Shown piece after piece: positions 18,720-46,324 of a stretch of 64,000 bases of DNA (position 1 is its first letter; every line of letters starts with the position of its first letter). The stretch is from Pseudomonadota bacterium. GTDB lineage: Bacteria; Desulfobacterota; Desulfobulbia; Desulfobulbales; JAHJIY01. The notes under the pieces were generated by a model, which had not been told where the DNA came from, made no database searches, and saw only the letters and a list, made by a program, of their open reading frames with translations. Made by a program: the position numbers and the translations under genes. Location: the NCBI GenBank assembly GCA_018823175.1, contig JAHJIY010000086.1:9625-73624 (forward strand). The letters run 5' to 3'.

Positions 18720-18720
18720 T

Positions 18721-19980: not shown

Positions 19981-20016
19981 TTTCTCGTAAAAATAGCGGT
20001 AAACCCGGTTTTAATT

Positions 20017-26150: not shown

Positions 26151-26341
26151 ACTTCTTTTGTTTTAAAAGGGCTTGCCGCGCCCGGCAGCAAATCTTTAAT
26201 TGTCTGAGCATTCGAGCGGCGGGGAAACTCCGGACCTTAGGAGTTATTAACAATCAGATCAGTGCGCGGATCGGACGGCAGGGAGATGTTTTCTGATCCC
26301 ATAAGTCGCGAGGAACGCCTGCTGATCGTGTTCAAAGAAAA

Positions 26342-28303: not shown

Positions 28304-28308
28304 TTTAT

Positions 28309-29823
28309 ATGCTTTCTGAAAAAAACATATCGGTTAAAAGACTGCCTTTCTCTTTTGCCAAAAGACACGGCGTGCTTCTGGTCGGGGTTGAGAACGACAA
28401 GGCCCTGGTTACCTGTCGTAACGGTTTACTGCCTTCGGCCCTGGTCGAGATCCGGCGCTTTGCCGGCATGCCTCTGCAGCTTTCGAGGGTTGATCGTGAA
28501 CGCTTTGATACCCTTTTGCAGCAATATTATGAAGGCGGTTCCAGCGATGCCATGCAGATTGCCGATGACCTCGGTGATGATTTTGATCTGCATAGTATCG
28601 CCGAGCAGATGCCGGAAACCGAGGACTTGCTGGAGAGCGAAGATGATGCCCCGATTATCCGGTTGATTAACGGACTGCTGACCGAGGCGATCAAGGAGAA
28701 TGCCTCGGACATTCATATCGAACCATACGAGAGCCGTTTACGGATCCGCCTGCGGGTTGACGGGGTCTTGCGGGAAATTCTGCAGCCGGCTCGGGTACTG
28801 GCGCCGCTGATTATTTCACGGATCAAGGTCATGGCCCGGCTCGATATCGCCGAGAAGAGACTGCCCCAGGACGGGCGGATATCGTTACGGATCGCCGGGC
28901 GACCGGTAGATGTTCGGGTTTCGACCATCCCTTCGGCGGCCGGTGAGAGGGTGGTGTTGCGTTTGCTCGATAAACAGGTAGGGCGCCTTGATTTTCAGAA
29001 TCTCGGGATGTCGGATGTAATCCTGCCGGTCATGAATCGGTTGATTAATCGGCCCAACGGTATTTTGCTGGTGACCGGGCCGACCGGCTCCGGCAAGACC
29101 ACCACCCTCTATGCCGGTCTTACCGTGCTCAATAAAAACAGCCGCAATATCATGACGGTTGAAGATCCGATTGAATACTATCTCGACGGGATCAGTCAGA
29201 CCCAGGTCAATACCAAGGTCGAGATGACTTTTGCCAAGGGCTTGCGGGCCATTCTGCGTCAGGATCCCGATGTGGTAATGATCGGTGAAATCCGGGATCT
29301 GGAAACCGCTGAAATTGCAGTCCAGGCCAGTCTCACCGGTCATCTGGTCCTTTCCACCCTGCACACCAATACCGCGGTGGGGGCGATGACCCGGCTGCGG
29401 GACATGGGGGTTGAGCCGTTTCTGTTGTCGTCGACTATTGTCGGGGTGCTTTCCCAGCGGTTGGTTCGGGTCTTGTGTGAGCATTGCAAAAGGCCGTATC
29501 AGGCGACCAGGTCTGAGTGTGTGAGTCTGGGAATCAGTGTCGATAATCCACCGACCTTTCATGCCGCGGTGGGTTGTGATAAATGTAAGCAGAATGGGTA
29601 TACCGGTCGGACCGGCATTTATGAGCTGGTTGAAATGGATGATACCATCCGGACCATGATTCATGACGGAACCAGTGAACATGAGATTGAAAAATACGCC
29701 CGCCTCCGCTCCGCCCATATCAGACAGGATGGCCTGCGGCGTATTCTCTCCGGCGACACCTCGATTGAAGAAGTATTGCGGGTAACGGCCGAGGACCAGA
29801 AAGAAGACCCTCTGGAACCATGA
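28309..29823 (+). CDS. gspE: Type II secretion system ATPase GspE
   Basis: 504 aa. Walker [10 protein letters not shown], Asp/His boxes and a tetracysteine motif (CEHCK...CDKCK). The N1 domain is of the GspE type. Confidence 0.95.
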   Translation: MLSEKNISVKRLPFSFAKRHGVLLVGVENDKALVTCRNGLLPSALVEIRRFAGMPLQLSRVDRERFDTLLQQYYEGGSSDAMQIADDLGDDFDLHSIAEQMPETEDLLESEDDAPIIRLINGLLTEAIKENASDIHIEPYESRLRIRLRVDGVLREILQPARVLAPLIISRIKVMARLDIAEKRLPQDGRISLRIAGRPVDVRVSTIPSAAGERVVLRLLDKQVGRLDFQNLGMSDVILPVMNRLINRPNGILLVTGPTGSGKTTTLYAGLTVLNKNSRNIMTVEDPIEYYLDGISQTQVNTKVEMTFAKGLRAILRQDPDVVMIGEIRDLETAEIAVQASLTGHLVLSTLHTNTAVGAMTRLRDMGVEPFLLSSTIVGVLSQRLVRVLCEHCKRPYQATRSECVSLGISVDNPPTFHAAVGCDKCKQNGYTGRTGIYELVEMDDTIRTMIHDGTSEHEIEKYARLRSAHIRQDGLRRILSGDTSIEEVLRVTAEDQKEDPLEP

Positions 29824-30050
29824 TGGTCAATGGATCTAAATGCTTTCTCCCCCTTTTAATTCATGCAACAAGATAATAAGGTCTCAGTTTTTGAAAACTT
29901 CAACCGAACTATCCAATGTTTATCTGCCTGATGGCAGTCGGCCTCTTTCTGGTGAGGGCGGTAGATTTTTGATCTCCAGCTGGATAATTAAATCGGATGT
30001 TGTTTTTGATCTGCGGCACTCATTAACGCTCACGAGTTCGGGTAATCTTC

Positions 30051-31265
30051 ATGGGCGCCTTTGAATACAGCGCGGTTGATAAGGCCGGCCGACTTAAGAA
30101 AGGGGTGTTGGAGGGAGATACCCCACGGCAGGTCCGGCAGATTATCAGGGACCGAGGGTTGTCGCCGGTTTCGGTTGAAGCGGTGGCTGAACAGGGGCAA
30201 AGCGGTGCCGTCCCTTTTTTTGGGCGAAGAAGTATCAGCAGTACCGATCTGGCCCTGATTACCCGGCAGCTCGCCACCCTGGTCCGGTCTGGTACTGTTC
30301 TGGAAGAGGCTCTGCGGGCGATTGCCGAACAGGCGGAAAAGGCCAGGATTATCGGCATCGTCACGGCGGTTCGTTCCAAGGTGGTGGAAGGACATCCGCT
30401 GGCCAACGCTTTGGCCGATTTTCCATCGGTATTCTCAAATTTATATCGGGCGACGGTCGGCGCCGGTGAGCAGACGGGCAAGCTTGATCTGGTGCTCGAA
30501 CGGCTGGCCGACCATACCGAATTTAATCAGCAGCTTCGGCAAAAGGTGATGCTGAGCCTTCTCTATCCAACCCTGTTGACCATTGTTGCTATTCTGGTGG
30601 TCTCCGCTCTGTTGACTTATGTGGTGCCGCAGGTGGTTTCGGTTTTTCGTAATATCAATCAGGAATTGCCGTTGTTGACCAAGGTCTTGATCGCCAGCAG
30701 TTCTTTTCTGCGCAGCAACGGTATTTTGATTCTGATCTTACTGGTTGGTTCTTTTGTCTTGTTTCGCTTCCTGATGCGAGGCGAGGGGTTTCGCCTGAAA
30801 TTCCATCATTTATTGCTCCGGCTTCCTCTGGTCTCGAGGTTCACCCGGTCAATCAATACGGCCCGTTTTGCCAGGACTTTCAGCATCTTGACCGCCAGCG
30901 GCGTACCGGTCCTGGAAGGGATGAATATCTCGGCCAAGGTCTTGGATAATCTGGCCATGCGTTATGCGGTTGAAGAGGCCTCCCGCCGGGTTCGGGAGGG
31001 GAGCACCGTCCATCGGACCCTGGCCAAGAGCGGCTATTTTTCCCCGATCATGATCCACCTTATTGCCAGCGGTGAGGCCAGCGCCAATCTTGATGAGATG
31101 CTGGAGCGGGCTGCTATTAATCAGGAACGTGATGTCGAAACCCTGATCGCCGCGGCCATGGGTATTTTTGAACCGCTGCTTATTCTGGTCATGGGTGGCG
31201 TGGTTTTGTTGATTGTTTTGGCGATTTTGTTGCCGATCTTTGATCTGAATCAACTGGTGAAGTGA
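30051..31265 (+). CDS. gspF: Type II secretion system inner-membrane platform protein GspF
   Basis: 404 aa. Duplicated T2SSF domains, three TM segments, and an MGAFEYSAVDKAGR start typical of GspF. Confidence 0.95.
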   Translation: MGAFEYSAVDKAGRLKKGVLEGDTPRQVRQIIRDRGLSPVSVEAVAEQGQSGAVPFFGRRSISSTDLALITRQLATLVRSGTVLEEALRAIAEQAEKARIIGIVTAVRSKVVEGHPLANALADFPSVFSNLYRATVGAGEQTGKLDLVLERLADHTEFNQQLRQKVMLSLLYPTLLTIVAILVVSALLTYVVPQVVSVFRNINQELPLLTKVLIASSSFLRSNGILILILLVGSFVLFRFLMRGEGFRLKFHHLLLRLPLVSRFTRSINTARFARTFSILTASGVPVLEGMNISAKVLDNLAMRYAVEEASRRVREGSTVHRTLAKSGYFSPIMIHLIASGEASANLDEMLERAAINQERDVETLIAAAMGIFEPLLILVMGGVVLLIVLAILLPIFDLNQLVK

Positions 31266-31648
31266 TGCATTCGGGCTTGTCTGATCGCCGGGGGTTTACC
31301 CTGTTGGAGATTCTGGTCGCCCTGGCGGTCCTTAGTCTGGTGGTGGTGGCGGTGTTGAAGAACAATAACGCCATGATCGACAACAGCATATATTTGCGCG
31401 ATAAAACCCTGGCCGGTTTTGTGGCCTCAAACAAGGCGGCTGATCTGGAGCTGGCCAATCTCTGGGTCAAGACCGGCACCGAGCAGGGGGAGGTCGTGCT
31501 GGCCGACCGGCGGTGGTTCTGGACGGTGGTCGGCAAGGAAACGCCTGATCCAGATATGCGGATCGCCGAAATCGAAGTAAGAAGCGAAAATGAAGAGGAG
31601 ACAGCCCTGGCCTCTTTGGTTATTTATCTTGGTCGTCCTCCTTTTTAA
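31262..31648 (+). CDS. gspI: Type II secretion minor pseudopilin GspI
   Basis: 128 aa. Prepilin leader plus GFTLLEILVALAVLSL. Size and position fit GspI. Overlaps the gspF stop codon. Confidence 0.8.
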   Translation: MMHSGLSDRRGFTLLEILVALAVLSLVVVAVLKNNNAMIDNSIYLRDKTLAGFVASNKAADLELANLWVKTGTEQGEVVLADRRWFWTVVGKETPDPDMRIAEIEVRSENEEETALASLVIYLGRPPF

Positions 31649-32300
31649 TGTGCAAGGTAATGGTTTGACTGATAATTATAACGGTTTGGCCGGCAAAGGT
31701 TTTACCCTGTTGGAATTACTTGTCGCCATGTCGATTTTCTCAGTAATGTCGGTTATGGCCTATAGCGGTCTGGCGACGATGATCGTAAGCCGGGAACATA
31801 TGATGGGGGAGGCGGAAAAACTTCAGGCGATCCAGCGGGTCTTTACCCTCATTTCCTATGATTTCAGGCAGGTTCTGGATCGGCCGGTCCGCGATGAGTT
31901 CGGTCAGGATTTAGGCGCCATGCTGGGCACCTTTGATCTGGAAATTGCCGCCGTCGAATTTACCCGAAGTGGCTGGCGTAATCCAACCGGCGCCAAACGC
32001 AGCAGCATGCAGAGGGTTGCTTACGAGCTTGAGAACGATAAGCTGATCAGAAAAAGCTGGCCGGTTTTGGATCGGGCCTATGATAGTAAACCATTTTCAA
32101 CCGTACTACTGTCCGGCGTCGAAAGGTTGGAGATCCGATATTTCAATGCCTATGATCAGGTGACCAACGTCTGGCCGCCGGCTAGCGGCTCGTTAGCTGG
32201 TTCCTTTGGGTCGCTTGCTTTGCCCAAGGCCGTGGAAATTGCGGTTGACCTGAAAGATTGGGGTCGGATTAATCGGCTATTTGTTCTGGTCAACGGATAA
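31590..32300 (+). CDS. gspJ: Type II secretion minor pseudopilin GspJ
   Basis: GFTLLELLVAMSIFSVMSVMAYSGL prepilin N-terminus. The true start is probably the in-frame GTG at 31650, just after the gspI stop, rather than ATG 31590. Confidence 0.8.
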   Translation: MKRRQPWPLWLFILVVLLFNVQGNGLTDNYNGLAGKGFTLLELLVAMSIFSVMSVMAYSGLATMIVSREHMMGEAEKLQAIQRVFTLISYDFRQVLDRPVRDEFGQDLGAMLGTFDLEIAAVEFTRSGWRNPTGAKRSSMQRVAYELENDKLIRKSWPVLDRAYDSKPFSTVLLSGVERLEIRYFNAYDQVTNVWPPASGSLAGSFGSLALPKAVEIAVDLKDWGRINRLFVLVNG

Positions 32301-32329
32301 TTGATTTGTCATATTTGTTGCGGAAAAAC

Positions 32330-33271
32330 ATGCTTGTTTATTTGAATAATCAAAAAGGGGTGGCGCTGGTTACCGTTTTGCTGATCGCCGGGATTGTTTC
32401 GGTAATGGCCCTCAGCATGACCTCAAGTCAGCAGATTGATATCAGGCGGACCGCCAACATTATTGAGTCGGAAAGGGCTCTCTGGCTCGTTAAAGGGGTG
32501 GAGACCTGGGGTGTGTGTCTACTGATGCGTGACAATGTGAGTGGCGGTAACGATAATCTGGGAGAAGACTGGGCCCAGGGCATGTTGCCGACCGGGATTG
32601 ACGGGGCTTTTGTCTCGGGTGAACTTGAAGATCTCCAGGGTCGGATAAATATTAATAATCTGGTGTCGGTACTCACCGTAGGCCAGGCCACCCTTAAAGG
32701 CGAGACCTGGAGCCAGCTGACCAGATTGTTTGAGAGGTGCGAGATTGATCCTGCCGCTCTTTATAAAGTGCTTGACTGGATTGATCCGGATGTCGATGCT
32801 CAGGGCTACGGTGCGGAGGATGAATATTATCTTGTTCAGGAGACCCCATACCGGGCGGCAAATCGGTTGATGGTCAGTCCCACCGAGCTCAGGGCAGTCG
32901 GGGACATTAGTGAAGAGGGTTATCAGTGTCTGGCCCCCAATATTTCGACCTTGCCCTACGATACATATATTAATGTCAATACGGTGCCGCCCGGGGTTAT
33001 TGCGGCCCTGGGTGATGACATTAGCCTGGCAGTTGCCGAGGAAGTTGTCGACGAGCGGCCGATCGACGGTTTTGCCTCTATTGCCGAGTTTCGGAATCTG
33101 CCGCAGTTCGCTGGAAAGGATATGGACATCGTGTTTCTGACCGATAGAAGTGAATATTTTCTGGCGACCTCCAGGGCCAGAGTTGGTCGGCAGGATATCG
33201 TCATGTATAGTCTGGTCGCTAAAAAATCCGATAAAGTCTCTGTTTTAAGCCGAAGTATTGGGGTATATTGA
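32330..33271 (+). CDS. gspK: Type II secretion minor pseudopilin GspK
   Basis: N-terminus QKGVALVTVLLIAGIV (GspK lacks the conserved Glu5) and a C-terminal helix-hairpin-helix-like region. The ORF track starts at TTG 32306; ATG 32330 is preferred. Confidence 0.8.
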   Translation: MLVYLNNQKGVALVTVLLIAGIVSVMALSMTSSQQIDIRRTANIIESERALWLVKGVETWGVCLLMRDNVSGGNDNLGEDWAQGMLPTGIDGAFVSGELEDLQGRININNLVSVLTVGQATLKGETWSQLTRLFERCEIDPAALYKVLDWIDPDVDAQGYGAEDEYYLVQETPYRAANRLMVSPTELRAVGDISEEGYQCLAPNISTLPYDTYINVNTVPPGVIAALGDDISLAVAEEVVDERPIDGFASIAEFRNLPQFAGKDMDIVFLTDRSEYFLATSRARVGRQDIVMYSLVAKKSDKVSVLSRSIGVY

Positions 33272-33326
33272 ACCGATATTTCAGGGCAAATCATTTTGAA
33301 AATTAGGTTATGAGCTGATTGATCAT

Positions 33327-34568
33327 ATGAATGAATTAATTATCTGCATAGGGGCGGAGGCCCCGGAAAAGGTCTGTTGGGCGGAGCGTGATGCCACAGG
33401 ATCCTTGTCCGTGGTTTGCGGCTCATTGCGTGAGGCGTCGGGCCGGATAGTGAAACGGACCGTGGTTCTGGTTCCCGGCTCTGAGGTTTTGCTTACTCGC
33501 GCCACCCTGCCGACCGGCAGCAAGAAACTGGCTTTAAAGGCTATTCCTTATGCCATTGAGGACAATCTGGCTTCCGATGTTGAAGGTCAACATTTTGCCT
33601 TTGGTCGAAAAAATTCCGACCAGACTTTAGCCGTGGCGGTGGTTGATAATCTCCGAATGGAGGCGTGGCTTTCCATGTTGCGCGAAGTAGGGATCGAGCC
33701 TGATATTATTTGTCCCGCTACCCTGGCTGTGCCGATTAATGATCAGGGGATTGCGGTGCTGATTGAAGGGGGCGATGCCTTGGTCCGGCTCGACAGTCAG
33801 CAGGGTTACGGGATTGATCAGGATAATTTGCCGATGATCCTCAATGCTGATTCTGACAAGGCGGCCGAGGGTGCGGCGCTTAAGGTCAGGATCTATAATT
33901 GTTCCGGCGAGCAACTGCCGGCCTTTGGTCCGGCTATTGAGCTTGATGAGGTGGCCGCCGGCAAGGGACGACTGGCGATGTTGTCATCGGCTGGCCAGGC
34001 CGCCTGGCATCTGGCATCCGGCTTTGATGAGAAGAAGGCGATCAATCTTCTGCAGGGTACGTACAGTCGTAATGCCGAGTGGGGAAAAGCCTGGCAGAAA
34101 TGGCAATTGCCGATCATGCTGCTCGCCGTTTTAATGGTATTGCATATCTCCAGCCAGATTTCGGATTTTTATCGATTGCGGGCCGAGAGTTTAAACTTGG
34201 ACTCCGCGATTGTCAATGTTTACAAGACAACTTTTCCCAAGGCCAAAAAAGTGGTTAAACCACGGGTCCAGATGGAACAAAAGCTTAAACTCCTCCAGGG
34301 TGGCGGTGATGCAGGCGGCTCTGGATTTCTTGAATTATTTGATAAGACCGGGCAGATTTTAATCCAAGGTAAAGGGGTTAAACTTTTGAACCTGCGTTTT
34401 CAGGAGGAAGTTATTGAGCTTGAATTTGAGACGACTGACCTGCAGGCCCTTGATGAATTAAAGGGGGCGTTAGTCAAACAGCCGGGAGTTGAGGTGGAAA
34501 TTAAAAACGCTTCAGCGGTAAATGACCATGTTCTGGCCCGGATGCGGATTAAGGCGGTGGCCCAATGA
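33327..34568 (+). CDS. gspL: Type II secretion system protein L
   Basis: 413 aa. Cytoplasmic actin-like domain, a single TM helix (WQLPIMLLAVLMVLHI) and a periplasmic domain. Position between gspK and gspM. Confidence 0.8.
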   Translation: MNELIICIGAEAPEKVCWAERDATGSLSVVCGSLREASGRIVKRTVVLVPGSEVLLTRATLPTGSKKLALKAIPYAIEDNLASDVEGQHFAFGRKNSDQTLAVAVVDNLRMEAWLSMLREVGIEPDIICPATLAVPINDQGIAVLIEGGDALVRLDSQQGYGIDQDNLPMILNADSDKAAEGAALKVRIYNCSGEQLPAFGPAIELDEVAAGKGRLAMLSSAGQAAWHLASGFDEKKAINLLQGTYSRNAEWGKAWQKWQLPIMLLAVLMVLHISSQISDFYRLRAESLNLDSAIVNVYKTTFPKAKKVVKPRVQMEQKLKLLQGGGDAGGSGFLELFDKTGQILIQGKGVKLLNLRFQEEVIELEFETTDLQALDELKGALVKQPGVEVEIKNASAVNDHVLARMRIKAVAQ

Positions 34569-35047
34569 TGGCTTTCTGGGAAAAATGGAGTAATCGTGAA
34601 CGATTGATGGTTGTTGGCTGCAGTTTATTCATCCTCCTTGCCGTGGCTTATCTGCTGGTCCTTGAACCTTTTTACAGTGGCCTTGACGAGTATCGGCGAC
34701 AGGTTCCCGGACAAAGGGCCGAACTTGCCTGGATGCAATCGGCCTCGCTTCGGATCAAGGAACTCGGTGGGCCGGCGGCGGATATCGTCGGACAGAACGC
34801 CTCTCCGCTGGCGGCGGTCGATCGGGCGGCCAGGAAAATGAAGATTGATTCTGCGATTAAACGGGTTGAACCGGGGGATAATGAGACGGTGAAGGTCTGG
34901 TTTGATGAGGTCCTTTTTGATGATCTTATTGCGTGGTGCCGGGTGTTAAGTGTGGAGTATGGCATCAAGATTGTAAGTTTTTCGGCTGATCGGCAGCAGG
35001 CGCCCGGTTATGTCAGCGCCCGGGTCGTTTTTGGTGGCCGGACCTGA
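34565..35047 (+). CDS. gspM: Type II secretion system protein M
   Basis: 160 aa. One N-terminal TM helix and a ferredoxin-like periplasmic domain. ATGA overlap with gspL. Confidence 0.8.
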   Translation: MMAFWEKWSNRERLMVVGCSLFILLAVAYLLVLEPFYSGLDEYRRQVPGQRAELAWMQSASLRIKELGGPAADIVGQNASPLAAVDRAARKMKIDSAIKRVEPGDNETVKVWFDEVLFDDLIAWCRVLSVEYGIKIVSFSADRQQAPGYVSARVVFGGRT

Positions 35048-35051
35048 TAAT

Positions 35052-35822
35052 ATGAAAAAATTCTCCAAGAGATATATTGTTTTTGGCTTTACCGCCTATC
35101 TGTTTTTCCTGGCCTTGTCTTTTCCCGCAGACCGGGCCTGGTCGATTGCCGAAAAACGGCTTGGTCCGTCGTCTGCTTTGCCGCAAGTTTCCGGAATCAG
35201 CGGGGTCTGGTGGTCTGGTCGGGTTGATGAAGTCAGGTTTAATGCGATAGAGCTGCGGAATCTGCGCTGGACATTTCGCCCATTAGCTCTGGTCCGGGGT
35301 ATGGTTAAGGCGGTGGTTGCTTTTGAACCGCCGGGCGGCAACTTTGCCGGGGTTATCGCGGTCGGACGTAAAACTATTGAACTGACTAAAGTAAAAGCCA
35401 AAGTTCCTTTCGATCAGCTTAACGATATCTTGACCGTTTTTGGGGTGCAGGTAGGCGGGTTTCTGGTTGCTGATCTGCAAAAGATAATCCTGGTAGACAA
35501 ATCGCTTCTTCTGGCAGACGGTTTGCTGGTCTGGCAGGATGCGTTGGTGGAACGGCCGCAAAAACTAATTTTAGGTGAGTTGAAGGCCGCTCTGTCAACG
35601 GAAAAGGAAGGGGTGCGAGCCGTAATTTCGGACAGCGGCGGGCCTTTGGTGGCGGAGGGCATTTCCACCCTGGATTCTGCCGGCCTATATAGTCTGGCGG
35701 TTAAACTCGCCTCACGGGACTCGGCGCAGCCGGATTTGGCCGATGCCATAAAGTTGCTGGGTACACCTGGTGGTGACGGCAAGGTCTCTTTATCTTATAA
35801 CGGCAAACTGCCGGAATTTTGA
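35052..35822 (+). CDS. gspN: Type II secretion system protein N
   Basis: About 256 aa. N-terminal TM helix and GspN-like length and position. ATG 35052 lies 5 nt after the gspM stop; the ORF track starts at 35010. Confidence 0.7.
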   Translation: MKKFSKRYIVFGFTAYLFFLALSFPADRAWSIAEKRLGPSSALPQVSGISGVWWSGRVDEVRFNAIELRNLRWTFRPLALVRGMVKAVVAFEPPGGNFAGVIAVGRKTIELTKVKAKVPFDQLNDILTVFGVQVGGFLVADLQKIILVDKSLLLADGLLVWQDALVERPQKLILGELKAALSTEKEGVRAVISDSGGPLVAEGISTLDSAGLYSLAVKLASRDSAQPDLADAIKLLGTPGGDGKVSLSYNGKLPEF

Positions 35823-35963
35823 TCGCCATGTCCTAAGGGGTGAGCAAACCAAGATCCGGTAAAAAGCATGGGTGATTTTCATAGTCAAAACCTTGGGCCT
35901 TTTTTGCGGCTCGTGTTTGTAATGATTTTTTTTGTATCGTATCAGTTAATAAGGAAAACAATA

Positions 35964-36428
35964 ATGGACAGAAAGATAATAACGGCAGGAACGGTTCGTG
36001 TTCTTGGTCAAAAAGGTTTTACCCTGATTGAGATTATGGTGGTGGTCGTAATTTTAAGTATCCTGGCTGCGATCATTGTGCCGCGCATCATGGATCGGCC
36101 GGATCAGGCCCGGGTGGTCAAGGCCCGGCAGGACATCAGGGCCCTGGAAAGCGCTCTGAAACTTTACAAGCTTGATAATTATGTATATCCCACCACCGAC
36201 CAGGGGTTGGAGGCCCTTTCGGTCAAACCAACCGATGAGCCTGAACCGAAAAAATGGAAAGATGGCGGCTATATTGATCGTCTGCCGAAAGATCCATGGG
36301 GTGGCGATTATCAATATCTGAGTCCGGGTGAGAACGGACCTATTGATATTTATTCACTCGGTGGCGATAATCAGCCCGGCGGTGAGGGGATTAATGCCGA
36401 TATCGGTAACTGGGACCTTGAAGAATAA
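35964..36428 (+). CDS. gspG: Type II secretion major pseudopilin GspG
   Basis: [55 protein letters not shown]... is a classic GspG sequence. ATG 35964 follows an AAGGAAAA SD; the ORF track starts at 35868. Confidence 0.9.
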
Positions 36429-36960
36429 GAAAGCAGGCCTTACTCAACAGGGCTTTACCCTGCTTGAATTAATTGTTGTTGTGTTGCTTATCGGGATCAT
36501 TACCAGCTTTGTCACTTTGTCCATCGGGTCGCGTAGTGATAAAATCGATACGGAAGCCCGCCGCCTGGTCGCCTTGCTCAACCTGGCCGGGGATGAGGCA
36601 GTGATGAGCGCCCGGGAATATGCCGCTGATTTTACGCCGACCACTTATCGGTTTATGGAATACGGTCGTGATGGCTGGCAGGACCTTGGAGAAAACGGTG
36701 ATGATGTCCTCCGCTCCCGCTCTCTGGCCGAAGGCATAAGTTTTAAGCTGGAGATCGCCGGAGAACCGGTGGATTTTGAGCGCTCTGCCCTGGTCGAGGA
36801 AAGAAAAGATCCGGTCGGTATCTTCCTTTTTTCCAGCGGCGAAGTCTCCCCTTTTGAAATTACCATCACCGATTCCTATTCCGGAGTGAGCCGAGTCGTT
36901 TCCAATCTGATCGATGGGCGGGCCAGGCTCGCTGATCCCGGTTTGTCCGTCAAAGATTAA
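36394..36960 (+). CDS. gspH: Type II secretion minor pseudopilin GspH
   Basis: [22 protein letters not shown] prepilin N-terminus, about 185 aa. Start at ATG 36394 or TTG 36418; the ORF track starts at 36328 inside gspG. Confidence 0.75.
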
Positions 36961-37324: not shown

Positions 37325-39445
37325 ATGCAAAAGTTCAAGATTGGATTGCTGATTGTCCTTATGGCAATGGGGTCTGGCCTGTATGGCTGTAGCGGTGATG
37401 ACGGGACTAACGGCGTCAATGGCGTTGATGGTGTCGATGGTTCCGATGGGACGGCAACACACACAGAGGAAAGCTGTACGGTATGTCATGGCGATAATCG
37501 GCTTTTGGATACAGCTGCCCTGCATACCGCAAACGCTACGGCCCTGGCAAACGATGATCTGGTTGGCACGGTCACGGGCATTACCGACGATGGTACTGGC
37601 CTTCTGACAATCGCCTTCTCCGTGGTCGACCAAGACGGTGCAGCAGTTACTGGCATTGCTCAGGGTCGCGCCTATCTGGCCGACATCGTCCCGGCCGGCG
37701 TTGGTACCAACACTTTTGGCTCCTCCTATTTGGAGCGTTGGGCCTACGAAACTAGTACAGGCACCTGGACAGATTTAGGTGCTGGAAACTACACCTATAA
37801 GTTTACTACCGCTGCCGTCCTTGGGGCCGCCGGTTTTGATGCCACGGCCGTAGATTTCGATACGACTCACACTCAGCGTCTGGTCTTGCGTCTTGGCGCT
37901 GATGACCATAATAACGGTCTCATCGTTCAAGACTTCAACCTGACCGGTGCCGGTGCCCAGACTCTGCTTGCTCCTCAACGCGTACTCGCCCCCACCGACG
38001 GCTGCAAGAATTGTCATAGCAACCAGATGGTCGGTGCCGCTCATGCCGATAGCTACCTCGACGTTCGCGCCTGTAACGTTTGTCATAGCCCCATCGGTCA
38101 TTACGCTGCGTCTATGACCGAAGATGATGCCTACATCGGCCGCTTTATTCATGGTATCCATGCTGCGAAGTCTTCGACTGAGTTGCCTGGTTTTGCTGAA
38201 TTTGAAGAGGGTGGCGGCCATGCCCGTTTCCCTGATGCCGCTGGCGTAGACCAAGGTTATGCGGCTGTTACCTATCCCAAAGCGATCAATGACTGTGCTG
38301 CTTGCCATACCGGCAGCGAGAGCATGACTGACGGTTGGAAGAGCAACCCGACGATGGAGATTTGTACCTCATGCCATACCTCCAGCACCGTTAATATCGA
38401 CGGCACCTTTACCCACACCGCAGAGAACACTTCTGCCCCGAGCTCCACCAAAACCAACGCTCAATGTGCCGGTTGTCATGGTGCAACGGATATAGTGGGC
38501 TACCATGCGGTGACCACGCTCAAAGGTGATTCGGCAGTATCTATCACCCCGGTCTATACGGCGACCATTGCCATGACCCCCCCCGCCAACGGTACTCACT
38601 ATGTAGCAGGTGAAGCACCAGTGGTCACGGTTACTACAACTGCATCCGGTGCCTACGACAGTCTTGACAACACTACCGATTATACTGCGGCCACTCTCTA
38701 TGTTTATGGCCCAAGGGCTGAAGCGGTACCGGTCTTGACTCCTGGTTCAACTACTGATCCTGATTATATTTCCATGATTAGTGATGACACTGATCCTGAT
38801 TATGATCCGACCGCACTTCCGACTCAGGGTCATAACATGCGCGCCAGTGATGCTGCAAGCGACGCCAATGTCCTGACCGATGCCACCGGCTTTAAGTATC
38901 AACTTCAGGCAATTCCTGCTGATCTTGCGCCGGGCACCTACATGGCTCAGGTTGCAATTGGCCATACCAGTAGCAGGACCACCGGCAGCCGTAACTACAA
39001 GATTGACGGTTGGCAGATGGTAAGCTTCCAGGTAGGAACGGCTACGACAGAGCAGAGAATTGGTGGCGATAAATGCAGCAATTGCCACGATCTGACCGAC
39101 TGGACCAGCACCTATCATCGTGCTTACTTTGGTACCGACGGTTGTAATGCCTGTCATGACAAATCGGGTAACCACGCTAATCCGATCGCCAACCGGGTCC
39201 ATGCTATCCATGCCTCTAGCGAAGCTGGCGATGCGCTTGGCGCTGATTGGGCGGAAATCACCTTCCCACAAAGCGATGTTGCTGAAGGTGAGCCTGAAAG
39301 CACGCTCTGTCAGGGTTGTCATACTACGGACAATACCAGCTACCTGACTAACCCAGGCGGCTTCCCTTGTCTTGGTTGTCATGGTGATACGCCAAATGCC
39401 GTGGATCATATGATCCAAAATGGTGCTCCGCTTGCAGCACACTAA
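37325..39445 (+). CDS. Decahaem c-type cytochrome lipoprotein, MtrC/OmcA-like
   Basis: 706 aa. Lipobox LYGC (Cys22) followed by the Gly-X-Y linker GDDGTNGVNGVDGVDGSDG. Ten CXXCH motifs have their first Cys at residues 51, 227, 250, 324, 347, 381, 584, 607, 662 and 682. Two haem-free beta-rich segments (GNYTYKF, GTYMAQV) resemble the MtrC/OmcA domain plan. Strong SD AAGGGAGAAGGG. Confidence 0.85.
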   Translation: MQKFKIGLLIVLMAMGSGLYGCSGDDGTNGVNGVDGVDGSDGTATHTEESCTVCHGDNRLLDTAALHTANATALANDDLVGTVTGITDDGTGLLTIAFSVVDQDGAAVTGIAQGRAYLADIVPAGVGTNTFGSSYLERWAYETSTGTWTDLGAGNYTYKFTTAAVLGAAGFDATAVDFDTTHTQRLVLRLGADDHNNGLIVQDFNLTGAGAQTLLAPQRVLAPTDGCKNCHSNQMVGAAHADSYLDVRACNVCHSPIGHYAASMTEDDAYIGRFIHGIHAAKSSTELPGFAEFEEGGGHARFPDAAGVDQGYAAVTYPKAINDCAACHTGSESMTDGWKSNPTMEICTSCHTSSTVNIDGTFTHTAENTSAPSSTKTNAQCAGCHGATDIVGYHAVTTLKGDSAVSITPVYTATIAMTPPANGTHYVAGEAPVVTVTTTASGAYDSLDNTTDYTAATLYVYGPRAEAVPVLTPGSTTDPDYISMISDDTDPDYDPTALPTQGHNMRASDAASDANVLTDATGFKYQLQAIPADLAPGTYMAQVAIGHTSSRTTGSRNYKIDGWQMVSFQVGTATTEQRIGGDKCSNCHDLTDWTSTYHRAYFGTDGCNACHDKSGNHANPIANRVHAIHASSEAGDALGADWAEITFPQSDVAEGEPESTLCQGCHTTDNTSYLTNPGGFPCLGCHGDTPNAVDHMIQNGAPLAAH

Positions 39446-39698: not shown

Positions 39699-41900
39699 AT
39701 GCCTAAAAAACAATCTCATTCCGATTTTCCCCCTGGATCAGAATTAAAGTCAAAGGTTTCTCAACGCTTACCCCTCTGGCAGGCCCTTGTCCTGCCAATA
39801 GTCGCTATCCTGGTCTTTTTTCTGCTCTTGGAAGGCGGACTCGCCCTTTTCGGTCTGCAACCGACCCTGCATAATAAGGACCCCTTTGTCGGCTTTGCTG
39901 CCAATGTCCCACTCTTTACCGCCTCACCTGGAGCAAACGGCAAACAACTGCTGACTACCCCAGCCAATAAAAAGGACTATTTCAACCGGCAGAGTTTTAC
40001 CAAAGAAAAAGATCCGAACACCTATCGTATATTTTCTCTCGGTGGCTCGACCACCTATGGCCGGCCTTACGCTGACAGTACTTCTTTTAGCGGCTGGCTG
40101 CGGCAACTGCTGCCCGTAGCCGACAGCAGTAAAAAATGGGAGGTGATTAACGCCGGTGGCATCAGTTATGCCAGCTATCGGGTTGCCCAGTTGATGGAAG
40201 AGTTGGTTCAGTATCAGCCGGATCTGTTCATCATCTATACCGGTCATAACGAATTCCTTGAAGAACGCACTTACCGTAAACTAAAAGAGATCCCGCCGCT
40301 GATCCGCTCAACTGCTTCGTTGCTGGCCAAAACCCGTACCTGGACAGCCCTGACCGGCGTATTAGAAAAGGTGGACCTCGCGCCGGTTGCGGAAAAGGAA
40401 ACCCGTTTTAAGCTTGGTACGGAAGTTGATGCTATCCTCGATCGTACTACAGGTCCGAAAAGTTACTCGCGTAACGATACCTTGAAAAACAACATCTTAA
40501 ACCATTTTCGGATCAGCCTGGAACAGATGGTTACCCTTGCCCAATCGGTGGGTGCTCAGGTCATTTTTGTCACGCCAGCCGCAAATCTGAAGGAATGTTC
40601 ACCCTTTAAAAGTGAGCACACCCCTGGCATCAATGCCGCATCACTGCGACGCTCCGAAGATTTGCTAACCATGAGCAAGCCAATGGTCTGGGAAAAAAAC
40701 TGGCCCATGGTTCTGCATTTCCTGGATGAGGCGGCGGCCATTGATCCGCGCTTTGCCGATCTACAGTATCATCGCGGTCAGGCTTTACTGGCGTTGGGCC
40801 GCAATAAAGAAGCCAAAACAGCCCTGCGCCTGGCGAGCGACGAAGATGTCTGCCCGCTTCGAGCTTTAACCCCGATGGCTCAAATCGTCACCGAGGTCGC
40901 CAAGCAGCACGGAGCTATGCTGGTCGATTTTATTGATCTCCTGGAGCAGAGGATGGTAAACAACAAAGAGTATCCCATCCTTGGTGCGGAGTTTTTTCTC
41001 GATCATGTGCACCCTACCATTGAAGGCCACAAACTATTGGCGGTCGAACTGCTTGAAACCATGTCTGCCCGAGGCATAGTGCATCCCGGTGCTGACTGGG
41101 GTACAGCAGCCATTTCGGCAGTCGCTGCAAAAATTGAAGCGGGTGTCGATCAATGGGTTCAGGGACATGCTTTGGCTAACCTGGCTCGGGTGCTATTGTG
41201 GGCCGGAAAAGAGCAAGATTCAGCCCGTCTGGCCAGGCAGGCATTGGAGCTCGCTGGTGATAATCAGCAAGTGGCGATCAACGCGACCACTACTCTGGCA
41301 ACCATCTACATCATGCAGAAAAATCCAAAGCGGGCCGTGAAGTTACTTTACGCTGCCCTTGAAAAAGCACCAAGCGCAATCGAGCTACGCCTCAAACTTG
41401 GCCAGATCATGCTGGGTCAGAAATCCCCAAATTTGGAAGGGGCAGCCGCAAATCTGCTATTGATCACCCAGCTGATGCCCTACTATGATGTTGGTCACAC
41501 CATATTCGGCATTGCCATGGCAGATCGAGGTCGTCCGCAAATTGCCTACCCGAGCCTGATGCAGGCGCTGCAGATTAACCCGAATAACAAGGACGCCAGC
41601 TTTAAATTGGCCCAAATCCGGCCCTTGCTCAAGGGGCTGGAATTCAGTCGGAAGTTCCTTCTTGTTCAGCTTGATTATTATCCTTCCACCGCCCCACGCA
41701 AAATGGTTCAGGGACGGCGTAATACCAACGGTCAATTCATCCAGGATGGTATTGAAGTGGAATTTCATGAGAATGGTCGGCTTAAAAGCTTCCTCGATAT
41801 TGAGCAAGGAAAACCAAATGGGCTCGAAATGACTTGGGATTCGGAGGGCAAGGTTTTGTCACGTAAGATTTATAAGCAGGGGATTCTTGTCGATGGTTAG
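39699..41900 (+). CDS. Membrane-anchored SGNH/GDSL-hydrolase-like, TPR and MORN(YwqK-like) fusion protein
   Basis: 733 aa. N-terminal TM helix. SGNH-like blocks are FSLGGSTTYG, NAGGISYAS, GHNEF and DHVHPT. The central region is TPR-like helical repeats. The C-terminal region has MORN/YwqK-like repeats (NGQFIQDGIEVEFHENGRLKS...NGLEMTWDSEGKV). Confidence 0.6.
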   Translation: MPKKQSHSDFPPGSELKSKVSQRLPLWQALVLPIVAILVFFLLLEGGLALFGLQPTLHNKDPFVGFAANVPLFTASPGANGKQLLTTPANKKDYFNRQSFTKEKDPNTYRIFSLGGSTTYGRPYADSTSFSGWLRQLLPVADSSKKWEVINAGGISYASYRVAQLMEELVQYQPDLFIIYTGHNEFLEERTYRKLKEIPPLIRSTASLLAKTRTWTALTGVLEKVDLAPVAEKETRFKLGTEVDAILDRTTGPKSYSRNDTLKNNILNHFRISLEQMVTLAQSVGAQVIFVTPAANLKECSPFKSEHTPGINAASLRRSEDLLTMSKPMVWEKNWPMVLHFLDEAAAIDPRFADLQYHRGQALLALGRNKEAKTALRLASDEDVCPLRALTPMAQIVTEVAKQHGAMLVDFIDLLEQRMVNNKEYPILGAEFFLDHVHPTIEGHKLLAVELLETMSARGIVHPGADWGTAAISAVAAKIEAGVDQWVQGHALANLARVLLWAGKEQDSARLARQALELAGDNQQVAINATTTLATIYIMQKNPKRAVKLLYAALEKAPSAIELRLKLGQIMLGQKSPNLEGAAANLLLITQLMPYYDVGHTIFGIAMADRGRPQIAYPSLMQALQINPNNKDASFKLAQIRPLLKGLEFSRKFLLVQLDYYPSTAPRKMVQGRRNTNGQFIQDGIEVEFHENGRLKSFLDIEQGKPNGLEMTWDSEGKVLSRKIYKQGILVDG

Positions 41901-42245
41901 GGACGGGAGTAACCTTGATCCCTGTATCGCTTTAGCAAATAATCATCTTTAAATTCAGTAACGTGGATTTTGTTTGTGATTTTTTCCGATCAGAAATTGA
42001 TACTGGAAGTGGGGTAATTAACCTGAAATAAAGGTTGTCAGCTTATATTATAATTAATAAGTGATCTTAGTAATGACTAATTTATTAAACTGTAATTTTT
42101 GTCTAACCGCATAAATGATCTTTAAGTACACTTTAATTATTGCATTTTATTTGTTGTTTTAGTAGTTATCTACTCTGTTTCTTTATCAAAACTAATTTGT
42201 ATTGCTGGCACATCCTAGGAACTTTTACCTTGTTCAGGGGGTAGC

Positions 42246-43535
42246 ATGATAATGACTAAATGGTCGGGCCGTTTTTTGGGGTTGGGGATAATGTCGGTAC
42301 TATGTTTGCCGACAGCTGCTTTTGCGGCGGAGATAAGTGTTAAATCCGACACGATCTTCCGGGGCTTTGAACGGGATACCGCGACAGAGTCTGAAGCCAT
42401 GGTGCTTCCTGCCTATGAGTATCTGCAGATTGACGTTGACACTCCAGGCGAGCCGGGACTGGCTCTTCATCTTTATGGCTGGGGGCGCGGAGATTTAGCG
42501 GATAAAGATTATTACGACGACACCACGGACGGGGAAGTCCTCTATGGTTATTTGGAATATAGCAAAAAAGAGGCGCGCTTCAACGCTAAACTTGGTCGGC
42601 AGCACGTGTTTGAAGGGGTGGCCAATGAAACCTTGGATGGCTTGCGGATCAGCTCTGATCTGGGGCGGTATTTTTCCGGATCGCTCTATGGCGGACAACA
42701 GGTCGCGATGAGCGATGAACAGGGGAGGAGTGGCGACAGTATTTATGGTGGCCGTTTGTCCCATCACCTGATCGGCCGTTATGCTCTGGGGGTCTCTTAC
42801 AAGAAAATTACTAATGACAGCGAAGATGCCGAAGAGATGACCGGTGTTGATCTGGCGGCTTATCTGCCTTACGATGTAAACCTGTTTGGGAATTCCACCT
42901 ACAATTTTGAAAGCGAAGACTGGGCTGAACATTCCTATGAAATGCGCGCCACCTTCGGCCAGTTGGCGGTACGTCCATATTTCCAGAAATTTAAATATGA
43001 TGATTATTTCGCTACTGGCGCCAACAGCGCCGGTCCTTTCCGTTTTCTTGCCGACAGCGGTGAGGAGTTGACGGTAGGTGGTGGTGACTTCACCCTGTCG
43101 CTTGATTCCACCTGGGTTCTGGTTGGCAAGTTTAAACATTATACTTATGAAGTGCTTGATGACGCCTCTCCCTATTATGGTGCGCAGGCCACCTGGTCGG
43201 GTGAAAAACACTGCCAGATCGGTGGCGAGGTCGGTTATATGAATGGCGAGGTGGCGCAGAACGACTATTACCTGGTTAGACTTTTCACCTATTGGGACCA
43301 GTTGCCGGCAATCTTGCCGATTGGGTTTGTCAGTGCCGATGTAGTCTATGTTGGATATGACAAGCCGATTTACGAAGAAGACAACTCGCTTTTTGTCTCT
43401 CTTGGCGCCGGCAAAAAGTTTATGGAGGATGCGCTTGAGTTGAAACTTTCCGGTGACTACAGCAGCGATCCTTACTTTGACCAAGACGTGCGGGGGATGT
43501 TGACGGCCAGTTACCGCTTTGGCCATTCACTGTAA
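42246..43535 (+). CDS. Predicted outer-membrane beta-barrel (porin-like) protein of a porin-cytochrome module
   Basis: 429 aa. Sec signal peptide (...LPTAAFA/AE), a pervasive alternating hydrophobic/aromatic pattern, Y/G-rich turns and a near-C-terminal OMP-like ...LTASYRF. No Cys-haem motifs. Immediately followed by two cytochrome genes. Confidence 0.6.
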   Translation: MIMTKWSGRFLGLGIMSVLCLPTAAFAAEISVKSDTIFRGFERDTATESEAMVLPAYEYLQIDVDTPGEPGLALHLYGWGRGDLADKDYYDDTTDGEVLYGYLEYSKKEARFNAKLGRQHVFEGVANETLDGLRISSDLGRYFSGSLYGGQQVAMSDEQGRSGDSIYGGRLSHHLIGRYALGVSYKKITNDSEDAEEMTGVDLAAYLPYDVNLFGNSTYNFESEDWAEHSYEMRATFGQLAVRPYFQKFKYDDYFATGANSAGPFRFLADSGEELTVGGGDFTLSLDSTWVLVGKFKHYTYEVLDDASPYYGAQATWSGEKHCQIGGEVGYMNGEVAQNDYYLVRLFTYWDQLPAILPIGFVSADVVYVGYDKPIYEEDNSLFVSLGAGKKFMEDALELKLSGDYSSDPYFDQDVRGMLTASYRFGHSL

Positions 43536-43564
43536 TGGATTTAATTACGATCAGGAGTCAAGTG

Positions 43565-44035
43565 ATGCGAACGAAATTTTGGATAGGAATTGGATTGTCT
43601 CTTTTGCTGCTGGCCTTGGGTGCTTGCGCAGCATTGGATAGCGGGTTAGATCTGCCGGCACGTCATCAAACGGCGGAGGATTTGGGGGAGGCCCCGAAGA
43701 TGTGTACCAATTGTCATGAGGCGCGCGGGGAGAAGCTGGCGTTTGGCAACTTCAACCATACGGCGACCTGGATGCAGACCCATCGGCAGCAGGCATATCA
43801 ACAGGAGGCTGTGTGTTCGATGTGTCATCAGCCCAGTTTCTGTAGCGACTGTCACGCGTCACGGGTGGAGCTTAAACCATCCTTGAAGAATCAGGCGGAA
43901 ACATCCCGGCAAATGCCGCATCGAGGAGATTATCTGACCAGGCATCGGATTGATGGCCGGGTTGATCCGACCTCTTGCTTCCGCTGTCACGGTAATCCGA
44001 AATCGGCTAAAACTTGCGTCCGTTGTCACGGTTAA
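43565..44035 (+). CDS. Pentahaem c-type cytochrome (small, periplasmic or lipoprotein)
   Basis: Five CXXCH motifs (CTNCH, CSMCH, CSDCH, CFRCH, CVRCH) in about 156 aa. Signal peptide with a possible lipobox ALGAC. ATG 43565 has an AGGAG SD 7 nt upstream; the ORF track starts at 43535. Confidence 0.85.
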   Translation: MRTKFWIGIGLSLLLLALGACAALDSGLDLPARHQTAEDLGEAPKMCTNCHEARGEKLAFGNFNHTATWMQTHRQQAYQQEAVCSMCHQPSFCSDCHASRVELKPSLKNQAETSRQMPHRGDYLTRHRIDGRVDPTSCFRCHGNPKSAKTCVRCHG

Positions 44036-44111
44036 GAGATAAAGTTGAGTTGAGCAGCCTTTCTGCTCAAATGAAACTTATGCCCTTGCGGTATAAGAAG
44101 GAGAAAACTAG

Positions 44112-44861
44112 ATGCTACGCTCATTTGCCTTTTTGATGTTGTTTCTTATCCCCTTCGCCCTGACCGGTTGTGGTGAAGGAAATTCTAATGCGCCTTTGGA
44201 TACAGAGCCCCATCCAGAGTCATGGATTTCGACTCATTCTGCGGCCGCCATCGCTGATGCTGGATACACGGGATGTATCAGCTGCCACGGTTCAGATCTG
44301 ACTGGTTATGGTGAGGTGCCCAGTTGCTATTCCTGTCACGTCTTTAACACCAGCCCGCCTTTAACGATTCATCCGGCGGCCTGGACCAATATCTATGTTA
44401 ATCATCGTGGCTCAGCAGATATCACCATTTGTGAAAATTGTCATGGTGTGCTTTTGCAGGGTAGTGAGTCTGCACCCAGTTGTTATTCAAGCATTTTCGA
44501 TGGTTTAAGTTGTCATGCAGCCGGCCCAGGACAGGCGCCTCATCCCGTCGATACTTCTTATTTGTCTGGTACTGTTCATGGTCCAGTTGCCAAATCGGAT
44601 TTGAGAGTATGCCAGGCCTGTCATGGCCAGGCGGGTGGACCGGGAGATAATCCGCGCTTTAATGTCGGGATCAGTAGTGCAGGTGGTAATGGTTGTGAGT
44701 CATGCCATGGTACCAACTATGCCCATCCGGCCAGCTGGATGAGTGGTCATCGTTCAGCCGGGAATATCTCGAATGTCTGCACCCTCTGTCATGGGGTCGC
44801 TCTTGATGGTAGTGGCGGAGTAGGTATCAGTTGCGGAACATGCCATGGAATCCCAGGGTAA
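44112..44861 (+). CDS. Multihaem c-type cytochrome lipoprotein (7 CXXCH plus 1 CX9CH)
   Basis: 249 aa. Lipobox LTGC (Cys20). Seven CXXCH motifs (CISCH, CYSCH, CENCH, CQACH, CESCH, CTLCH, CGTCH) plus CYSSIFDGLSCH. Four tandem two-haem modules. AAGGAG SD. Confidence 0.85.
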   Translation: MLRSFAFLMLFLIPFALTGCGEGNSNAPLDTEPHPESWISTHSAAAIADAGYTGCISCHGSDLTGYGEVPSCYSCHVFNTSPPLTIHPAAWTNIYVNHRGSADITICENCHGVLLQGSESAPSCYSSIFDGLSCHAAGPGQAPHPVDTSYLSGTVHGPVAKSDLRVCQACHGQAGGPGDNPRFNVGISSAGGNGCESCHGTNYAHPASWMSGHRSAGNISNVCTLCHGVALDGSGGVGISCGTCHGIPG

Positions 44862-44946
44862 TAAATATACTGGGTTATTTGTGCGGAATTACTTCCTGCC
44901 TTTGTCTTAAATACCAGGGAGTATGAAAATTACAGAATCTGAAAAA

Positions 44947-44979
44947 AGGCGAATCCAATTGTGGATTCGCCTTTTTTTA
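44947..44979 (+). terminator. Rho-independent terminator after the cytochrome module
   Basis: AGGCGAATCCA - attg - TGGATTCGCCT followed by T7. Confidence 0.85.
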
Positions 44980-45164: not shown

Positions 45165-45218
45165 ATCGAAGTATGCGCTATCTGCTTCAATTAGTTCGCA
45201 GATAGCGCATACTTCGAT
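45165..45218. repeat. Perfect 21-bp inverted repeat with 12-nt loop
   Basis: ATCGAAGTATGCGCTATCTGC (45165-45185) and GCAGATAGCGCATACTTCGAT (45198-45218). Lies between convergent transcription units, 44 nt past the mgtC stop. Confidence 0.8.
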
Positions 45219-45261
45219 GACTCCTTTTGGAGCTGAAGATTAATGGTAATTAGAAAATATA

Positions 45262-45759: not shown

Positions 45760-45854
45760 TTCGTCTATTTATCTCACAAAGTAGATTGGCGGCATTGACT
45801 GCTGACTAACAGGAATCAATGCCGCCATTTAAAACTAATCTCGAAAAGGCAGAT

Positions 45855-46223: not shown

Positions 46224-46324
46224 TTTGACACCTTTAAATTCTAGGATTGATAACGATTATACCTTTAAATGATTTAATAACAGATGTTAATTTCGCAACA
46301 TCATGCGCTCCTTGTTGGTAATTT

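Follow-up and report, generated by a model that had tools for sequence, protein, structure and literature searches.

A compact three-gene locus from a Desulfobacterota-like genome probably encodes an Ext-type porin–cytochrome conduit

The window analyzed here is a 64-kb stretch of contig JAHJIY010000086.1, and it contains at positions 42246–44861 a trio of genes coding for proteins of 429, 156, and 249 aa, which together carry 13 haem motifs. The first gene codes for a predicted outer-membrane (OM) β-barrel, the second for a pentahaem protein, and the third for an 8-haem protein. All three are co-oriented, with an AT-rich spacer on the 5′ side and a terminator on the 3′ side. The features of this unit are given below, where the Ext names refer to the porin–cytochrome conduits which are considered further on as the probable family of the trio.

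41901..42245, no strand assigned: AT-rich intergenic spacer of 345 bp (31.3% GC vs 48.9% in the window), presumed promoter or regulatory region
42246..43535, plus strand: probable ExtB/E-family OM β-barrel with a type I signal peptide (open reading frame [ORF], AlphaFold2 [AF2] model, Foldseek, homologues)
43565..44035, plus strand: ExtC/F-like pentahaem c-type cytochrome lipoprotein of 156 aa (five CXXCH motifs, lipobox LGAC, pairing with the barrel)
44112..44861, plus strand: 8-haem lipoprotein cytochrome in the ExtD position (seven CXXCH motifs and one CX9CH, lipobox LTGC)
~44940..44979, plus strand: intrinsic terminator hairpin followed by a T-run, closing the three-gene unit (fold of −25.9 kcal/mol, z = −7.5)

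The ORF, GC, and folding checks agreed with the initial annotation of this DNA, which had described three ORFs of this position and build between AT-rich DNA and a strong terminator. The terminator hairpin was overlooked by a consensus terminator scan, and it was folding that confirmed it. The sigma-70-like matches found in the spacer at 41901–42245 were weak, and their count was not above that in shuffled sequence. The stop codon of the barrel gene overlaps the start of the long form of the second ORF (TAATG), and the third gene is preceded by a 76-nt gap containing a GGAG ribosome-binding site.

The barrel ORF (42246..43535, plus strand, 429 aa) begins with MIMTKWSGRFLGLGIMSVLCLPTAAFA|AE, which resembles a type I signal peptide (...PTAAFA|AE), and its last residues are ...LTASYRFGHSL, while the NCBI call for this gene uses the second ATG and gives a shorter product of 427 aa (MBU0484753.1). 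The HMM searches returned no Pfam family for this protein at E ≤ 0.1, including no match to PF11854, and the only NCBIfam match was a weak one to an Opr-porin model, far under its cut-off. Sequence searches against solved structures found no relatives of the barrel or of either cytochrome in the PDB. The AF2 model of the barrel, calculated from a 69-sequence alignment, had a mean pLDDT of 87.7 and a pTM of 0.75, and contained 22 β-strands. When this model was compared with the PDB using Foldseek, only OM barrels were retrieved, with sequence identity of 9–12% throughout. The best query-normalised TM-scores (0.52–0.56) were obtained for the 24-strand ushers FimD and PapC, and the 18-strand OccD and AlgE barrels gave TM-scores of ~0.4–0.46. 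The 22 strands of the model and the fact that all Foldseek matches were OM barrels clearly point to the 429-aa protein being a large OM barrel, as the initial annotation had proposed, whose predicted size clearly exceeds that of a substrate porin but not that of MtrB with its 26 strands. By analogy to other large barrels, a 22-strand barrel could be wide enough to accommodate a protein of ~135 residues.

The structural matches could also be read in a different way, with the barrel serving mainly as an export or anchoring channel for surface cytochromes, or as a substrate porin, and the pentahaem protein being just another periplasmic or surface carrier. The top Foldseek matches by TM-score are usher translocation pores, other top ones are OprD/Occ-type substrate porins, and the Opr-porin match, even though far under the cut-off, has the same direction. 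A review calls a role of porin–cytochrome complexes in cytochrome secretion speculative (PMC12307469). However, at such low sequence identity the structural matches reflect a generic barrel likeness, and we consider this explanation highly improbable in view of the gene linkage and the gene fusions described below.

The long ORF of the second gene extends from 43535 to 44035 and corresponds to 166 aa, but the probable start is the ATG at 43565, which gives a product of 156 aa. This start is indicated by an AGGAG sequence located 7 nt upstream, by the NCBI call, which is the 156-aa form (MBU0484754.1), and by the relatives of this protein, which are likewise ~156 aa long. The five CXXCH motifs are located at residues 57, 94, 103, 148, and 161 of the 166-aa ORF. 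The protein has a lipobox, LGAC, and a mature part of ~135 aa, in which the five motifs account for 10 cysteines. The alignment of 26 family members contained five further invariant histidines besides the five CXXCH motifs, which implies that the protein would carry five bis-His haems. The closest relatives of the pentahaem protein include one from a Desulfurivibrionaceae metagenome-assembled genome (MAG). The lipobox cysteine is present in most of the 26 sequences, but it is missing from two Desulfobacteraceae sequences. These are the homologues from Desulfoluna limicola and from a Desulfobacteraceae MAG (loci L058 and L061), which have the sequence …LLFTQLSIGG… without the lipobox cysteine, and therefore the lipid anchor is not universal in this family.

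The third gene (44112..44861, plus strand) codes for a 249-aa protein with the lipobox LTGC, seven CXXCH motifs, and the sequence CYSSIFDGLSCH, which is a CX9CH motif. Its Pfam matches were to generic c7/c3 models only. The CX9CH motif (C[FY]S..F.G..CH) recurs among homologous third-gene products, with 34 occurrences at the X9 spacing in 71 sequences, which indicates on sequence grounds that it is a family feature and not a chance occurrence, and it is probably the eighth haem site of the protein. The third-gene family is built of repeats of one module, the same as in the window protein, and ranges from 240 to 1512 aa with up to 28 CXXCH motifs, the median being 502 aa and 12 haems. Short products are also encoded elsewhere, such as a 240-aa protein with eight CXXCH motifs (locus L068) and a 256-aa protein in Geopsychrobacter electrodiphilus. 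Hence, the third gene of the window is at the short end of the family size range, yet it is not unique.

The family to which the barrel belongs proved to be large. There were 597 homologues in a 90%-clustered database, nearly all of them 425–432 aa long and named 'hypothetical', and no public annotation in the family says more than 'hypothetical protein' or 'cytochrome C'. When the barrel profile was searched against 1.84 billion representatives at 50% identity, 852 clusters were found at E ≤ 1e-3, including 233 at E ≤ 1e-30. When one genome of each GTDB species was scanned, 204 barrel relatives were obtained, the best 80 of which were used for the locus comparisons. These 80 loci belong to Desulfuromonadales, Geopsychrobacteraceae, Geothermobacter, Geobacteraceae, Desulfobulbaceae, Desulfobacteraceae (Desulfoluna), Deferrisomatales, and Nitrospirota, and the nearest ones are from MAGs of Desulfobulbaceae, Desulfobacterales, and Desulfoarculaceae. 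Of the 77 loci in which the barrel ORF is intact, 75 have directly after it a gene for a protein of 150–170 aa with five CXXCH motifs, usually with a lipobox and often with an overlap of the stop and start codons. By tblastn the barrel–pentahaem pair was found in 79 of 82 loci, and a third cytochrome homologous to that of the window in 69 of 82. These data showed that the barrel and the pentahaem protein form the invariant core, and that the third cytochrome is a variable module. Because the pair and the trio are conserved in ~80 independent loci, the gene arrangement is more than chance. The near-obligate 1:1 linkage with the pentahaem protein at ~80 loci, often with translational coupling, is also difficult to reconcile with a barrel that mainly exports or anchors other proteins.

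The same is suggested by two Nitrospirota barrels which are fused to a tetrahaem c7-like domain at their C-terminus, a fact that supports a role of the barrel in electron transfer and not purely as a porin. In both of these MAG loci (L072 6394–8703 and L073 6236–9067) the barrel is joined to the c7/c3-like haem domain by long Pro/Ala-rich linkers and repeated ~80-aa domains. There is an additional monohaem domain in L073, and in L072 a separate pentahaem gene still follows the fused barrel. In another locus (L033) the whole module, consisting of a barrel, a pentahaem protein, and a 6-haem protein, is present in tandem copies that are ~90% identical (4705–7398 and 7926–10637), and this duplication is flanked by MtrC-like decahaem genes.

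A corresponding architecture has been described for the Ext conduits of Geobacter sulfurreducens. ExtABCD (GSU2645–2642) comprises the periplasmic dodecahaem ExtA, the barrel ExtB, the pentahaem lipoprotein ExtC, and the lipoprotein ExtD, while ExtEFG (GSU2726–2724) has the barrel ExtE and ExtG besides a pentahaem lipoprotein, ExtF (Jiménez Otero et al. 2018, PMC6148476). ExtC and ExtF are 49% identical to each other, and ExtD has no homologues at ≥40% outside close Geobacter relatives (PMC6148476, supplementary table); the number of ExtD haems has been given as 6 or 12. The legend of Figure 9 in the same study mentions extBCD loci without extA, and some relatives with an extra lipoprotein decahaem upstream of extE (PMC6148476). 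ExtB and ExtE have been treated as a single porin family, which is separate from MtrB, OmbB, and ExtI (Arbour et al. 2020, PMC7399161). On electrodes, removing extB, extC, or else extD singly in Geobacter sulfurreducens was as severe as the deletion of the whole cluster, while the deletion of extA had a mild effect, which means that the conduit can also be fed by other cytochromes of the periplasm (PMC8357294). Electrode growth was abolished in each of the mutants without ExtB, ExtC, or ExtD.

The window resembles ExtBCD in having a barrel, then a pentahaem lipoprotein of ~155 aa, and then a further multihaem lipoprotein in the position of ExtD. It differs in that the third cytochrome is an 8-haem member of a variable family, in that the barrel is modelled with 22 strands, while 18 were predicted for ExtB by older tools, and in the linkage of an MtrC-like decahaem gene and a type II secretion system (T2SS) to the locus. 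What the window has in common with ExtEFG is the barrel immediately before the pentahaem lipoprotein, the larger cytochrome that follows, and the decahaem lipoprotein upstream, whereas ExtG has been described as a periplasmic dodecahaem and the third gene of the window codes for a small lipoprotein.

The connection to named Ext proteins leads through G. electrodiphilus, a cultured anode-respiring isolate. The locus of strain DSM 16401 (L081; ARWE01000001.1, ~859–880 kb) contains a barrel of 429 aa, which is 66% identical to that of the window, a pentahaem protein of 156 aa (WP_020675253), which is 73% identical, and the 256-aa WP_020675252, which is 58% identical to the 8-haem protein and has the same layout of haem motifs. 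Two ExtC homologues, of 59.8% and 53.2% identity, have been listed for this species (PMC6148476, supplementary table). More generally, the window barrel is 29–71% identical (E down to 0) to barrels which precede pentahaem genes in Geobacteraceae, Desulfuromonas, and Geopsychrobacter. In a Desulfuromonadales/"geobacteraceae" MAG (L059) a barrel 41% identical to that of the window forms a pair with a pentahaem protein, and a gene for a 298-aa, 12-haem ExtA-like protein is located directly upstream of this pair. In the Geobacter-type loci L074–L080 the barrels, which probably represent the ExtE branch, are 29–31% identical to the window barrel, and the pentahaem proteins are 38–43% identical to that of the window. 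Because the Geobacter-type proteins are so distant, we conclude from the sequence comparisons that the trio would belong to the other, Desulfuromonas/Geopsychrobacter-type branch of the ExtB/E–ExtC/F family. Hence, these data suggest that the trio is probably an Ext-type porin–cytochrome conduit which carries respiratory electrons across the OM. The Ext family is already known, widespread, and poorly annotated, and what is found here is probably a compact further member of it.

This is different from what the initial annotation had proposed, which was a minimal conduit of a type not characterised, similar to Pcc in gene order but unrelated to known systems. Such a view is supported by the lack of any Pfam or NCBIfam family and of solved relatives for the barrel and the pentahaem protein, by the uninformative public annotations, and by the low total of 13 haems with a third gene close to the family minimum. 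However, the same architecture has been published as ExtBCD and ExtEFG and dissected genetically, gene by gene (PMC6148476, PMC8357294, PMC7399161). Moreover, an orthologous trio is present in a cultured electrode-reducer whose pentahaem genes are listed as ExtC homologues, the middle protein differs from OmaB in being a lipoprotein, and the family counts hundreds of members. The small haem numbers are not unprecedented either, as ExtC and ExtF are pentahaem proteins and ExtD has 6 or 12 haems. A novel conduit type is thus largely refuted and very unlikely, even though the locus is indeed at the small end of the size range of its family, in keeping with the small size pointed out in the initial annotation.

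Membership in three other conduit systems was considered and rejected. In the Pcc system of G. sulfurreducens, OmaB is a soluble periplasmic octahaem cytochrome and OmcB is a dodecahaem cytochrome. The likeness to Pcc (OmbB–OmaB–OmcB) consists in the gene order of porin, small cytochrome, and lipoprotein cytochrome, and in the presumed role. The gene order noticed in the initial annotation thus stands, while the likeness does not extend to the proteins, because the middle one is a 5-haem lipoprotein, not a soluble 8-haem protein like OmaB, and the third one has eight haem motifs. The Ext components have also been reported to be non-homologous to those of Omc (PMC6148476), and OmbB to belong to a porin family apart from ExtB/E (PMC7399161).

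As for the Mtr type (MtrCAB, PioAB, MtoAB), to which an analogy had also been drawn, the barrel and both cytochromes match neither PF11854 (MtrB_PioB) nor TIGR03508. The barrel has 22 strands vs 26 in MtrB, and there was no MtrB within its top 50 Foldseek matches. The TIGR03508 model, which represents MtrA/DmsE-type decahaem proteins, matched neither the pentahaem nor the 8-haem protein, and there was no other candidate in the 64-kb window. What is shared with MtrCAB of Shewanella is the concept, in which a barrel sheathes a haem wire and a T2SS exports a lipoprotein cytochrome to the surface, and the fold family of MtrC/OmcA, to which the 706-aa protein encoded upstream belongs. The difference is that the candidate wire in the window is a lipid-anchored protein with 5 haems.

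The third system, OetABI of Ca. Desulfofervidus auxilii, a sulfate-reducing partner of anaerobic methanotrophic archaea (ANME), is similar in being a proposed porin–cytochrome conduit in Desulfobacterota. The BLASTP comparison of the HotSeep-1 oet neighbours (L083) with the window barrel and the 8-haem protein gave only matches of haem motifs with E ≥ 0.008. The cluster at L083 8186–12206 includes a 286-aa cytochrome, probably OetA, which shares 38% identity with the ExtA-like L059 protein, and its other members are not related to the barrel and the pentahaem protein of the Ext type. Because of this resemblance, ExtA-like periplasmic cytochromes seem to be common to otherwise different conduit types.

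Together with genes upstream of it, the trio forms an island of the extracellular electron transfer (EET) type. The following features were assigned in this region:

25230..36960, plus strand: complete T2SS, directly upstream of the cytochrome genes (Pfam matches)
37325..39445, plus strand: MtrC/OmcA-family decahaem lipoprotein, likely surface partner (706 aa, lipobox LYGC, 10 CXXCH motifs)
39699..41900, plus strand: membrane-anchored SGNH/GDSL-hydrolase and TPR protein (733 aa, Pfam matches)

A motif count found only three cytochrome genes in the window, which are those for the pentahaem and 8-haem proteins and the 10-haem gene at 37325..39445. The 706-aa decahaem protein matched PF22113 (8e-29) and PF22111 (2.5e-8), and its TIGR03507 match (1.4e-50, 172.5 bits) was below the cut-off of 209.3, which suggests that it is a divergent member of the MtrC/OmcA family. 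Its lipobox is followed by a collagen-like G-x-D-G-x-N-G linker. There is no mtrA or mtrB gene in the 64-kb window. Of the 82 loci, 17 encode an MtrC-like homologue close to the barrel, and about 6–8 have T2SS genes near the trio. This recurrent linkage suggests that Mtr-type surface cytochromes may pair with a non-Mtr barrel. The 733-aa protein is membrane-anchored at its N-terminus and contains TPR repeats and a hydrolase domain of the SGNH/GDSL type, as well as a weak match to MORN. Its gene is located between the MtrC-like gene and the barrel, and the same placement is found in G. electrodiphilus (59% identity) and in six other loci.

The gene order of the T2SS (gspC, D, E, F, I, J, K, L, M, N, G, H) is unusual. 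Upstream of the secretion and EET island, at 16780–22425 on the plus strand, there is a block of trigger factor, ClpP, ClpX, and Lon genes, and because of this housekeeping block the island appears to be located in the core chromosome and not in an obvious mobile element. The G. electrodiphilus island is similar to that of the window, as it contains an MtrC-like decahaem, an SGNH/TPR protein, the barrel, the pentahaem protein, an 8-haem cytochrome, and an adjacent T2SS, with all genes annotated as 'hypothetical'. The differences are that its T2SS (L081 12986–21290) is downstream of the trio, while that of the window is upstream, and that a second MtrC-like gene and a carbamoyltransferase gene are inserted. 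The adjoining T2SS could be taken in favor of the barrel being involved in cytochrome export; on the other hand, a dedicated secretion system is then already there for this task. Overall, the barrel model, the lipoboxes on both cytochromes, and the EET-type island with a decahaem lipoprotein and a T2SS agree with the reading as a porin–cytochrome gene cluster, which was already made in the initial annotation.

If the trio is an Ext-type conduit, electron transfer could proceed as follows. The pentahaem protein would be reduced by generic cytochromes of the periplasm, for which there are no genes in the vicinity, and it would be located in or at the 22-strand barrel and serve as the trans-membrane haem wire. 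From there electrons would be passed on the cell surface to the 8-haem lipoprotein and perhaps also to the MtrC-like decahaem. The T2SS would place the 8-haem lipoprotein, and possibly the MtrC-like protein, on the surface as terminal reductases, and the surface cytochromes would then reduce minerals, electrodes, or partner cells. The threading of the pentahaem protein through the barrel, which the initial annotation had raised, is plausible. We tentatively propose, as a possibility which we hold with less than even confidence, that the trans-membrane wire is this lipid-anchored protein and not a soluble periplasmic cytochrome. In such an arrangement a 135-residue 'plug' with five bis-His haems would fill the 22-strand barrel, similarly to the plug domain in TonB-dependent transporters, and any periplasmic carrier could feed interchangeable surface modules, which are the 8-haem lipoprotein and the MtrC-like decahaem placed by the T2SS. 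If true, Ext-type conduits would be architecturally distinct from Mtr and Pcc, the published outer-surface topology of ExtC and ExtF would have to be revised, and the locus, with its 13 haems, would represent a naturally occurring, close to minimal form that lends itself to structural work.

Several observations weigh against the assignment of the trio to outward-directed Ext conduits or against the proposed placement of its proteins. The homology to the named ExtB, ExtC, ExtE, and ExtF is a two-step chain, via G. electrodiphilus and the published identity tables, in which the identification of the L081 pentahaem protein as one of D888DRAFT_0812/0827 is inferred rather than direct. The searches with a Geobacter-type barrel and with the 12-haem ExtA-like protein of L059 did not return G. 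sulfurreducens; the matches were to Pelotalea, Oryzomonas, Desulfuromonadales MAGs, and Ca. Desulfofervidus. No gene for an ExtA-like periplasmic dodecahaem is present in the 64-kb window, and neither a Pfam or NCBIfam model nor a solved structure is available for the barrel or the pentahaem protein. In the published models of Ext conduits, ExtC and ExtF are placed at the outer surface. Furthermore, the source of the DNA is an uncultured, Desulfobacterota-like MAG, and haem wires are in principle reversible, so that the sequence sets no direction of transfer.

The last point could suggest that the locus serves mainly for electron uptake, the donor being Fe(II) or a reduced mineral, a cathode, or a syntrophic partner. 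This would fit the relatives of the pentahaem protein in Desulfurivibrionaceae and the nearest barrel loci in Desulfobulbaceae, Desulfobacterales, and Desulfoarculaceae, which are not classical metal reducers, and a different, non-homologous conduit has been proposed for electron uptake in ANME-partner sulfate reducers. On the other hand, the decahaem protein encoded next to the trio is of the MtrC/OmcA type, which in Shewanella is a terminal-reductase type. The experimental data on the family, which come only from G. sulfurreducens, all concern outward transfer (PMC6148476, PMC8357294), and G. electrodiphilus is listed as a carrier of ExtC homologues in a survey of outward EET (PMC6148476). 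Hence, a main role in uptake is unlikely, and the trio is more probably an Ext-type conduit for outward electron transfer.

With this assignment, the locus adds an unusually small example from an uncultured, Desulfobacterota-like MAG to the ExtB/E–ExtC/F conduit family. To our knowledge, no structure of an Ext-type complex has been solved, and the trio together with its ortholog from the cultured G. electrodiphilus could be a convenient minimal target for a first structure or reconstitution. Because this large family lacks a model in both Pfam and NCBIfam and its genes carry the label 'hypothetical', genome surveys that rely on these databases will miss it.

The region downstream of the trio has a different character. 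Positions 45172–45224 form an inverted repeat whose 21-bp arms match perfectly around a loop of 12 nt (−43.8 kcal/mol, z = −8.8, with the minus strand folded). This repeat is located between the terminator of the trio and the 3′ end of a minus-strand MgtC-family gene (45262–45759), and it may be the terminator of this gene or a repeat element. The MgtC-family gene belongs to a minus-strand cluster at 45262–49866 which is unrelated to EET. This cluster also codes for a highly acidic 122-aa protein with a signal peptide, a pyridoxal phosphate-dependent Orn/DAP/Arg decarboxylase, and two more ORFs of 423 and 322 aa.

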